This document shows positions 25,501 through 28,500 of a DNA stretch of 64,000 nt, piece after piece. Under the pieces are notes generated by a model that made no database searches, was not told where the DNA came from, and worked only from the letters and a program-made list of their open reading frames with translations. Each line of letters starts with the position of its first letter. Position 1 is the stretch's first letter. This DNA is from Eledone cirrhosa. Its lineage: Eukaryota. Made by a program: the position numbers and the translations under genes. The stretch covers positions 19,034,001 to 19,098,000 of the forward strand of contig OZ024756.1 in NCBI GenBank assembly GCA_964016885.1. Reading direction: 5' to 3'.

Positions 25501-28500
25501 ACCATTCTATCTGATGTTCTAACAACTCTACCATTCTATCTGATGTTCTAACAACTCTACCATTCTATCTGATGTTCTAACAACTCTACCATTCTATCTG
25601 ATGTTCTAACAACTCTACCATTCTATCTGATGTTCTAACAACTCTACCATTCTATCTGATGTTCTAACCACTCTACCATTCTATCTGATGTTCTAACCAC
25701 TCTACCATTCAATCTGATGTTCTAACAACTCTACCATTCTATCTGATGTTCTAACAACTCTACCATTCTATCTGATGTTCTAACCACTCTACCATTCTAT
25801 CTGACGTTCTAACCACTCTACCATTCTATCTGACGTTCTAACAACTCTACCATTCTATCTGATGTTCTAACAACTCTGCCAATTCGCCACCTAACAGGTA
25901 TATAATCACCCCAAATAGAATGAATGGTATAGGTGACTGACTGTATATATCTACTGACTATAACAACCTCAGTAGATAACTGGTATATATTTTACCAACC
26001 TAAATAGGATGACTCCAATGGTACATACCTTTTTATCAAGATCTTCTCCAGCAAATGTAAGGTTTACCATTTCCTTTGCGTTTGAAATTTCATCAGCAGT
26101 TATCTAAAACATAGAGAGAGGGAGGGATGAGAGGGGAGGAGTAGAGATGAGAGGGGAGAGATGTGAGAGAGGGAGGAAGGAGGTAGAGATGTGAAAGGTA
26201 GACATGATATGGGAGAGGGGAGAGGTAGAGATGTGGGAGGTAGAGATGAGAGGGAGGAGAGAGAGAGGGAAGAGGTAAAGTAATTGTTCTGGTGACATAA
26301 CAAAAAGCACCCAGTCCACCCTGTAATATGGGTGGTGTTATGAAGGGCATCCAGTTGTAGATACCCTCAAGCCCAAATACAGATCTGTATGAGCAAGACA
26401 GACGTGATCTCCTCACCTGAATTCTCTCATAACCACAACAACCCATCTAACCCATGCAAAATGGACGTCAAATGATGATGGTGATGATGGTGAAGGTGAT
26501 AATGATGACGATGATGATGATTATGGTAGTGATGATGGTGGTGGTGGTGGTGGTGCTGGTGATGATTAGGGTGGTGGTGGTGGTGATTATGGTGGTGGTG
26601 ATGGTGATGATTAGGGTGGTGGTGGTGGTGATGATTATGGTGGTGGTGGTGGTGGTGATGATTATGGTGGTGGTGGTGGTGATGATTAGGGTGGTGGTGG
26701 TGGTGGTGATGATTATGGTGGTGGTGCTGGTGATGATTATGGTGGTGGTGCTGGTGATGATTATGGTGGTGGTGTTGGTGATGATTGTGGTGGTGGTGCT
26801 GGTGATGATTGTGGTGGTGGTGCTGGTGATGATTGTGGTGGTGGTGCTGGTGATGATTGTGGTGGTGGTGGTGGTGGTGATTGTGGTGGTGGTGCTGGTG
26901 ATGATTATGGTGGTGGTGGTGGTGGTGATTGTGGTGGTGGTGCTGGTGATGATTATGGTGGTGGTGGTGATGGTGATGATTAGGGTGGTGGTGGTGGTGA
27001 TGATTATGGTGGTGATGGTGATGATTGTGGTGGTGGTGGTGGTGATGATGATGATGGTGATGGTGGTGGTGGTGATGATTATGGTGGTGGTGGTGGTGAT
27101 GATTGTGGTGGTGGTGCTGGTGATGATTAGGGTGGTGCTGGTGGTGGTGGTGATGGTGGTGATGGTGATGATTATGGTGGTGGTGCTGGTGATGATTATG
27201 GTGGTGGTTGTGATGATGATCACGATGATCACGATGATGATGGTGAGGATGATGATGATGGTGAGGATGATGATGATGGTGAGGATGATGATGATGGTGA
27301 GGATGATGATGATGATGGTGGTGATGATGACTAATGATGACAATGATGGTAATGATGATGACGATGATGATGACGATGATGATGATGATGATGCTGTTGC
27401 TGCTGACAATGAGAACAACAATGATGGTAACTATGACAATGACAGGTATATCTGTTTACGCAAGTCTCTGTACAGTGGGGGGGGGGGGGGGGGGGGGAAG
27501 ATGATCCAAAGAACTTTCTCAGTGATTCCGCTACTTACTGTTATGGTGCTCTTATTAACTGTTGCTCTGCCGTATATTAAGAGAGGCTTTGTGAATGGAC
27601 TACAGGATACTACCTGTAGTAAATAGAAAGAAAAACATCAATGAACAAACAAACCATCGGCAGAATGGTTAAGGTAATTCCTTATATGGTCAATATAACG
27701 TCAGCTCAAAAGTGACACAGAGGAGACTGAGGTTAGCTGGACATGCTCACCGACATCCAGAGTTGACATTGCACTCAGTGCTCCTTTGGGAGCCACTACA
27801 TGGACACACTAGAAGAGGAAGACCAAGGTTAACGTATGTTGATGCCCTAAGGATAGACACTGGTCTGTTGGAGACGCAGGACATGGCAGCGATAATGAGG
27901 GACAGAGACCGCTGGAGAGAACTCGTTCATGGATCTCAGGAATTTACCCGCCTTAGATAGATAGATATATATATATATATATATATATATTATTTTTGTT
28001 TGTTTTATTCAGGTTGCTATAGACTTTACTGGTTCCAATGGCGACCCTAGGAGTCCGTCCTCTTTACATTACATTGATCCCTATCGACCAAACCACTACA
28101 TGCAGGCCATTCGGGCTGTCGGCAATATTTGTCAGGATTAGATAGATAGATGGTCAATATTTGAAGAAATCAGTTCTTTGTTTCTGTTATGATGGTGTGG
28201 CACACCTGTTTGTATATCTGTACGAAATGAAGGTAACAGCCAAGGTATCCACCAGGTGTAATTATGAACTACCATCGAGAGACTACAACGAGGCTCCGTA
28301 CACACAGATTTCTTGACAGTTCACTTCAGTTTTTACTTATAGTTTCGCCAAGTCCACTTTTAGTTACGCGGGGGTGTAAAGGGTTCCTTTTTATATCGAA
28401 ATCTTCCAACATAATTTTATATAAGAACCTTACATTAAGTTCTTATCTTAGTAATGAAATGATTAATAATTCTATTAACCCTTTAATGTTCAAACCGGCC

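Follow-up and report, generated by a model that had tools for sequence, protein, structure and literature searches.

An inverted copy of a copine exon lies within the tail of an RTE-like LINE in an intron of the same gene in Eledone cirrhosa

The window (the whole 64,000-nucleotide stretch of Eledone cirrhosa DNA that was analyzed) contains a copine-3-like gene on its minus strand. Thirteen coding exons were mapped, every one with AG and GT boundaries, and together they provide 511 codons with 0 stops. The translation of exon 10 matched the Pfam Copine domain (E 5.9e-08) and the copine-3-like proteins of Octopus vulgaris and O. sinensis (98%), and the other copine exons were 72-89% identical to the protein queries by tblastn. 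Each of exons 3-9 is phase 0, and their total length is 564 nt, so that a circle made from them would have a stop-free frame, and skipping of exon 10 produces a frameshift with a stop 66 nt into exon 11; the exon arithmetic of the original prediction, which had proposed this circle and this frameshift, was upheld. The features of the gene and of the duplicated exon region are as follows.

10539..31243, minus strand: copine-3-like gene, coding exons 1-13 (the mapped part, C-terminal exons excluded), from tblastn with P0002/P0003 and the exon table
17176..17309, minus strand: copine exon 10, 134 nt, VAIDFTGSN..., start of the copine/vWA domain, from Pfam, homologues and a contig of run X4
17909..17968, minus strand: copine exon 9, candidate back-splice donor, with its donor 568 nt upstream of the source arm
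27539..27613, minus strand: copine exon 3, whose acceptor follows the copy by 368 nt in the pre-mRNA
17182..17341, minus strand: source stretch, running from (AT)5 through the pyrimidine tract and the acceptor into exon 10, most of which it covers, from self-alignment
27981..28140, plus strand: inverted copy of the end of copine intron 9 (32 nt with AG) and 128 nt of exon 10, antisense in the pre-mRNA
27967..27990, plus strand: AT tract at the left end of the copy, (AT)12, where the source carries (AT)5
17340..17669, minus strand: dispersed SINE-like repeat adjoining the source, with a 96% inverted match to 9462-9793 and further copies

Self-alignment within the window matched 27981-28140 on the plus strand to the reverse complement of 17182-17341, with 159 of 160 bases identical (E 1e-78). 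Besides (AT)5, the pyrimidine tract and the AG at 28011-28012, the copy carries 128 of the 134 exon 10 bases, and it lacks the final 6 bases of the exon as well as the donor; the predicted near-identical inverted copy of the exon 10 region with its acceptor was thereby confirmed. The sole mismatch, at 28078, is a synonymous change in an Asp codon. A distance of 10,640 nt (10.64 kb) separates the copy from the source arm, and the exon model bears out the claimed location some 10.7 kb away in the intron that follows coding exon 2. A search of the whole 3.0-Gb assembly (DNA) with the exon sequence had hits at three places: besides the copy and the source exon, there was one match of 71% identity. 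This last match (L003, G000:C17:26440459-26440588) is on the same contig and is likely a copine paralogue. The (AT)12 of the copy compared to the (AT)5 of the source indicates that approximately 7 units were gained at or after the junction. The source begins with GAT(AT)5, which is the end of the dispersed repeat adjoining the exon, and ends with TTA, so that both junctions have at least 3 bases in common with the LINE tail described below; the (GAT)n(AT)5 end of the repeat, the SINE label of which we infer, provides the microhomology on the left.

The surroundings of the copy, which did not figure in the original prediction, place it in the tail of a LINE between two nested duplications.

27697..27954, plus strand: 3' end of a young, 5'-truncated RTE-like LINE that runs antisense to the copine gene, with its start 83 nt upstream from the acceptor of exon 3
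27686..27696, plus strand: left copy of the outer 11-bp target-site duplication (ATGGTCAATAT), identical to 28150-28160
28150..28160, plus strand: right copy of the outer 11-bp target-site duplication, which encloses the LINE and the copy
27953..27966, plus strand: left copy of the inner 14-bp duplication, TT plus (AGAT)3, comprising the last bases of the LINE and its tail, identical to 28138-28151
28138..28151, plus strand: right copy of the inner 14-bp duplication, which encloses the copy alone and whose TTA is common to the exon (3-nt microhomology)

The order at the locus is the 11-bp duplication, the LINE fragment, TT(AGAT)3, (AT)12, the copine piece, TT(AGAT)3 and the 11-bp duplication; the 11-bp sequence also occurs at 58100, a third and unrelated instance. 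Among 1,598 candidates, the 39 best other copies were 96-98% identical to the 258-nt LINE fragment. A Pfam search of the 85-residue LINE fragment at the locus gave no match, and a longer copy (L012) encodes RVT_1 together with a sub-cutoff match to DUF6451. A homologue search with the LINE protein returned no clade names, and we take the element to be RTE-like from its C-terminal motifs and microsatellite tail rather than from a reverse transcriptase tree. The tail consists of (AGAT)2-4 in 30 of 30 copies, which were picked by a motif demanding two units, and (AT)n comes after the tail in 22 of the 30. Candidate duplications were recovered by the automatic search in just 6 of these 30 copies, and its output was kept out of the length statistics. 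The microsatellite tail and the AT overlap with the duplication were both observed here, and a microsatellite-like 3' end that overlaps the target is described for RTE elements in the available text of PMC6007223.

The right junction of the copy into unique flanking sequence was spanned by separately assembled contigs from runs X1, X2 and X3 (250 nt at depths of 9.85 and 10.4 for X1 and X3, respectively, and 448 nt at depth 6.17 for X2). This junction is therefore not an artefact of the assembly used here, and the copy is real in the sequence data within the one sample that the three runs represent; that sample is possibly the source of the assembly, and the runs are not independent animals. 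The left junction falls within a skipped repeat (27947-28006) and is supported by the assembly alone. At 28078, the contigs of all three runs contain C rather than T, probably because source and copy were merged in the contig graph, and by reason of this merging the lone mismatch may be real, heterozygous or an error. Depth, estimated by hand against neighboring single-copy contigs (4.6-5.8), leans toward two carrier haplotypes for X1 and X3, with an ambiguous value for X2, and neither a LINE-only nor an empty allele was found among the contigs listed. Three RAD runs from other samples under the same species label (X21, X22 and X23) leave 28007-28180 uncovered and are uninformative on presence or absence; the starts and ends of their reads indicate a frequent-cutter digest with sparse cover per locus, so these runs are silent on other animals. 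Sixteen further runs (X5-X20, labeled as 14 other organisms), which were kept out of the analysis, have 5-17% of sampled words in common with 27520-28320.

The exact motif of the LINE end occurs at 3,870 sites in the genome, and a second tail follows within 30-300 nt in 16 of them. Nine of these two-tail matches were inspected singly, and the remaining seven belong to the same tandem array as L038. The copine locus (L037) is the sole one of the 16 with unique host sequence between the tails, so there is no second example of such a capture among them. Two others, L034 and L036, resemble it in that the outer duplication likewise encloses the LINE, a foreign piece and a second tail. We had considered them as host captures and rejected that reading when the foreign piece turned out to be a high-copy LINE: in both it is the 3' end of a younger LINE (RVT_1 plus zf-RVT) in the opposite orientation. 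Within 60 kb around each site, no local source for the foreign piece was found for L034, and just a 73% copy was found near L036. Copies of the younger LINE are 98-99% identical, with at least 857 candidates, and the element adjoins AGAT in 27 of 30 copies. In 19 of the 23 copies with both ends in view, candidate duplications measure 10-27 nt, a range inflated by microsatellites. We take this octopod LINE to be a Tx1 element from its zinc-knuckle motif rather than from a tree. In L034 and L036, its candidate duplications take in the last bases of the host LINE, as at the copine locus. The nested layout of these two loci arises because the younger, (AGAT)n-targeting LINE inserted into RTE-like tails, an order of insertions that is presumed. 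The tail of the RTE-like LINE is, in this genome, a secondary insertion target, and a hit there duplicates its last bases. Such behavior is like that of Kibi and Koshi, Tx1-clade LINEs that target microsatellites according to the available text of PMC4494074, in that the younger LINE inserts at (AGAT)n, including RTE-like tails, and gives the two-tail layout; the copine locus is unlike a case of this type in that its piece is host gene sequence and not an element.

Several observations accompany this survey. Copies of the younger LINE lie in (AGAT)n tracts at L034 (G000:C1:85006859-85006972), at L036 (G000:C17:9976757-9977039) and at L093-L121; its tail is complementary to the RTE-like tail, and it was found twice inside that tail in the opposite orientation. 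Eight of the 16 two-tail matches, L038-L045 (G000:C24:4114053-4114866), form a single 61-bp tandem array, of which only L038 was examined. The array unit comprises the last bases of the LINE, its tail and flank, making it a minisatellite derived from the LINE end. L048 and L049 represent one duplicated locus, after which an AGAT tract lies by chance; a short duplication of local sequence accounts for L035, and L046 and L047 are cases of a LINE beside a LINE, with two LINE pieces inside one candidate duplication in L047. At L036 (1273-1515), an inverted 5' part of 186 nt precedes a 59-nt direct 3' end in a twin-priming-like arrangement; an inverted piece also occurs in L046, and an inverted fragment of the RTE-like family follows the tail of L027. 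The three largest palindromes of the window were considered as sister events, and the two that were searched are multi-copy repeats. One is a 1.3-kb palindrome (41225-42516; 97% self-complementary, with an (AT)n center) whose arm tested as high-copy (3,264 candidates), with a second full arm present just here among 40 scored places; another (6716-7026; 311 nt, 96%) is a multi-copy MITE-like element with 116 candidates. An 879-codon open frame at 37505-40141 on the minus strand (RVT_1 plus a PHD finger) is a retroelement upstream of the first coding exon.

For the origin of the copy, the best reading, which we consider evenly poised, is a two-step one in which the copine piece is a later, local templated insertion into the tail of a pre-existing RTE-like LINE. 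First, the LINE would have inserted in intron 2, leaving the 11-bp duplication. Later, its (AGAT)3 tail would have been nicked or broken, plausibly by the younger (AGAT)n-targeting LINE family or during replication, and the free end ...AGAT(AT)n could have paired with the GAT(AT)5 tract that precedes exon 10, at a distance of 10.6 kb. A polymerase, for which the machinery of the second LINE or of host repair is a candidate, would then have copied 160 bases, and the strand would have rejoined at TTA 14 bases back, duplicating the tail. All steps of this route, and of the single-step route considered next, are ones that we infer. Supporting the two-step reading are the nested perfect duplications of 11 bp and 14 bp and the analogues L034 and L036, with their nested layout from a second insertion. 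Both tails have exactly three AGAT units, as duplication predicts, an agreement with a chance of about 0.36 (tail counts 12/12/6). Private changes number 1 in 160 for the copy (perhaps 0) versus 5 in 258 for the LINE, as judged against comparison copies chosen by similarity, with a Fisher p of 0.41, or 0.16 if the copy has 0 in 160; the copy looks no older than the LINE from these sequences, with an age difference that is not significant. Against the two-step reading, copying from the left side requires a plus-strand template (DNA or an unknown antisense RNA), and abundant sense pre-mRNA would fit the orientation of the copy too. The lack of a LINE-only or empty allele among the listed contigs, and of a second host capture among the 16 two-tail matches, also counts against it.

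In a single-step alternative, which we regard as possible and somewhat doubtful, the LINE reverse transcriptase switched onto a copine template and back during its own insertion. The enzyme would prime at the intron 2 target, copy the (AGAT)3 tail and switch at TTA, then copy 160 bases of nascent copine pre-mRNA (or of the displaced non-template DNA strand) up to (AT)5, and finally re-prime on the tail of the LINE RNA to copy 258 bases. The outer duplication surrounds LINE and copy together, and the copy has the sense orientation of the LINE and holds intron sequence, as a pre-mRNA template predicts. Since (AT)n comes after the tail in most copies of the family (22 of 30), an (AT)n end is a natural primer; the ages of LINE and copy are also compatible, and the two LINE pieces within one candidate duplication at L047 point the same way. 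L1 elements provide precedents for templated non-L1 pieces and for insertions made from two RNAs, within the available text of the reports cited below. Against this reading, two switches are required, and the first would come when just 14 nt had been copied; the route does not account for tails of equal length on the two sides; and L034 and L036 show that a second insertion can yield the layout.

The L1 precedents are insertions with templated non-LINE pieces of less than 250 bp, typically from no more than 15 bp away (10.1101/2024.08.27.596794; PMC11702581), as far as the available text of these sources describes them. At the copine locus, the elements of a LINE-associated templated insertion that were seen are a LINE 3' fragment, the tail of the family, a target-site duplication, an intact nearby source and microhomology (GAT(AT)n on the left and TTA on the right). 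The resemblance lies in a short local non-LINE segment duplicated in or beside a LINE that has a target-site duplication. The L1 cases come from human cells (somatic or experimental), and those described, 22 in number, typically draw on templates no farther than 15 bp from the site, a further argument against the single-step route; here the template is 10.6 kb distant, the element is an invertebrate RTE-like LINE, and the copine piece sits inside the 3' tail with a 14-bp duplication of its own. LINE-1/RNA chimeras (10.1101/2025.02.02.635956), again within the text available, similarly join host sequence to a LINE in like orientation, inside a single target-site duplication. In those chimeras the host RNA is on the 5' side of the LINE and is mostly snRNA or spliced 5' exons, whereas the copine copy is unspliced, local and located between two tails on the 3' side. 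A literature search for an event of this kind in cephalopods or RTE elements found no report.

Microhomology-mediated template switching during replication or break repair is the basis of FoSTeS/MMBIR and of polymerase theta templated insertions. The copine locus is like the products of FoSTeS/MMBIR in its inverted local template, the 3-nt microhomology at both junctions and the short duplication at the return point, and from sequence alone such a process is indistinguishable from capture by a LINE enzyme.

The other explanations for the copy fare worse. A 3' transduction, in which a donor LINE once occupied the (AT)5 tract that precedes exon 10 and its read-through RNA went into intron 2, is very improbable: the LINE-tail-(AT)n-flank order matches insertion into that (AT)5 tract, but no such LINE is present at the source, the sole family match in the window is the intron 2 piece, and reinsertion less than 11 kb from the donor would be a coincidence. 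A processed retrocopy (pseudogene) was rejected because the copy keeps 32 nt of intron and is without poly(A). An assembly artefact is hardly credible, for although the copy is nearly identical to its source, starts in a microsatellite and has a left junction that no listed contig crosses, contigs assembled separately from three runs span the right junction, and two perfect duplications of biological style frame the copy.

We investigated the effect of the copy on copine transcripts in the sole RNA data set, X4, which was identified as RNA from its spliced contig. This contig (contig 17; 1,978 nt, depth 10.2) joins exon 2 to exon 3 and later contains exon 10, exactly 564 nt past the start of exon 3, followed by exon 11. 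Over 128 exon 10 bases, it matches the genomic exon and differs from the copy only by the C of the source. No A>G change in exon 10 was seen in contig 17, contigs being of a kind that drop rare variants, and no other or edited exon 10 contig of this gene was present among the X4 matches listed at 82% likeness. The hyper-editing or skipping of exon 10 that had been proposed thus found no support in this contig, which includes the exon and has no A>G change. Contig 17 also has one unlisted difference from the genome in exon 3 (27535-27609), either an allele or editing, and X4 holds a second, more abundant copine-like contig (depth 78.5).

The pairing potential of the two arms is nonetheless considerable. 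The computed duplex has an energy of -299.5 kcal/mol versus approximately -30 for either arm folded alone, and it is predicted to pair 30 adenosines, 27 of which would recode if edited. Of 27 non-simple inverted pairs in 9000-31400, the one formed by copy and source has the closest match and ranks second by score; the count of 27 excludes dust-masked simple repeats and a 375-nt palindrome in intron 1. The near-perfect duplex over the acceptor and exon 10 proposed in the original prediction is therefore borne out as a strong computed energy, while the X4 mRNA contig exhibits no effect of it. Two other inverted structures were noted. The SINE-like repeats at 17340-17669 and 9462-9793 form a 96%-identical inverted pair (332 bp, 7.5 kb apart) that outscores the copy/source pair and touches the pyrimidine tract of exon 10 with one arm; the 375-nt palindrome (92%; 30452-30826), in coding intron 1 of the copine gene, provides a far closer hairpin and is a likelier ADAR substrate.

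Action of the copy as a long-range exon-complementary sequence (ECS), with appreciable ADAR editing, exon 10 skipping followed by decay, or formation of the 564-nt circle, appears improbable. The copy is complementary to an exon in the same pre-mRNA, as an ECS requires, and in this it is like the intronic ECSs and circRNA-promoting inverted repeats covered in the available text of PMC4066801 and PMC7006430. Exons 3-9 lie between the two arms, the best-matched non-simple inverted pair of the gene region, with 368 nt to the exon 3 acceptor and 568 nt to the exon 9 donor. The arm that overlaps exon 10 also masks the competing acceptor, and the depth estimated by hand leans to both haplotypes in two of the three runs. 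Against a functional pairing, exon 10 in X4 is included, unedited over 128 nt and continued normally into exon 11. The 10.64-kb spacing is far over the approximately 800 bp across which the editability of inverted Alu elements falls off (PMC4066801), seven exons and their introns intervene between the arms, and octopus circRNAs are reported to be low overall (PMC9699675), each source as represented in its available text. Near-perfect duplexes, according to the text available from PMC7006430, are depleted chiefly from mature RNA, and from pre-mRNA chiefly if longer than 300 bp. The insertion is, moreover, young, and it differs from known ECSs, as these sources describe them, in its far longer spacing, its recent and accidental origin and its one unedited mRNA contig. 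Rare forms are lost from contigs at depth 10, so that editing, skipping or circles at a low level remain an outside prospect. A role in cryptic polyadenylation was rejected, since AATAAA already occurs 23 times on the strand of the gene. The copy is likely a harmless copying accident that leaves the main mRNA unaffected, as judged from one contig of undocumented tissue and genotype.

As a neutral accident, the locus provides one well-preserved invertebrate case of host sequence captured within a LINE tail, and it reveals the (AGAT)n tails of the RTE-like family as secondary insertion targets. If the duplex forms, it would offer a natural test of the reach of an ECS, and of the birth of recoding sites, in a heavily editing animal. 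The boldest reading, that a LINE tail captured a host exon backwards and so gave rise in one step to a perfect long-range guide for editing or back-splicing in a coleoid, is a long shot. If true, the copy would be an ECS of recent and datable birth, and copine recoding, skipping or the stop-free 564-nt circle would be toggled according to whether an individual carries it; captures of this kind may be a route to new recoding sites in coleoids.
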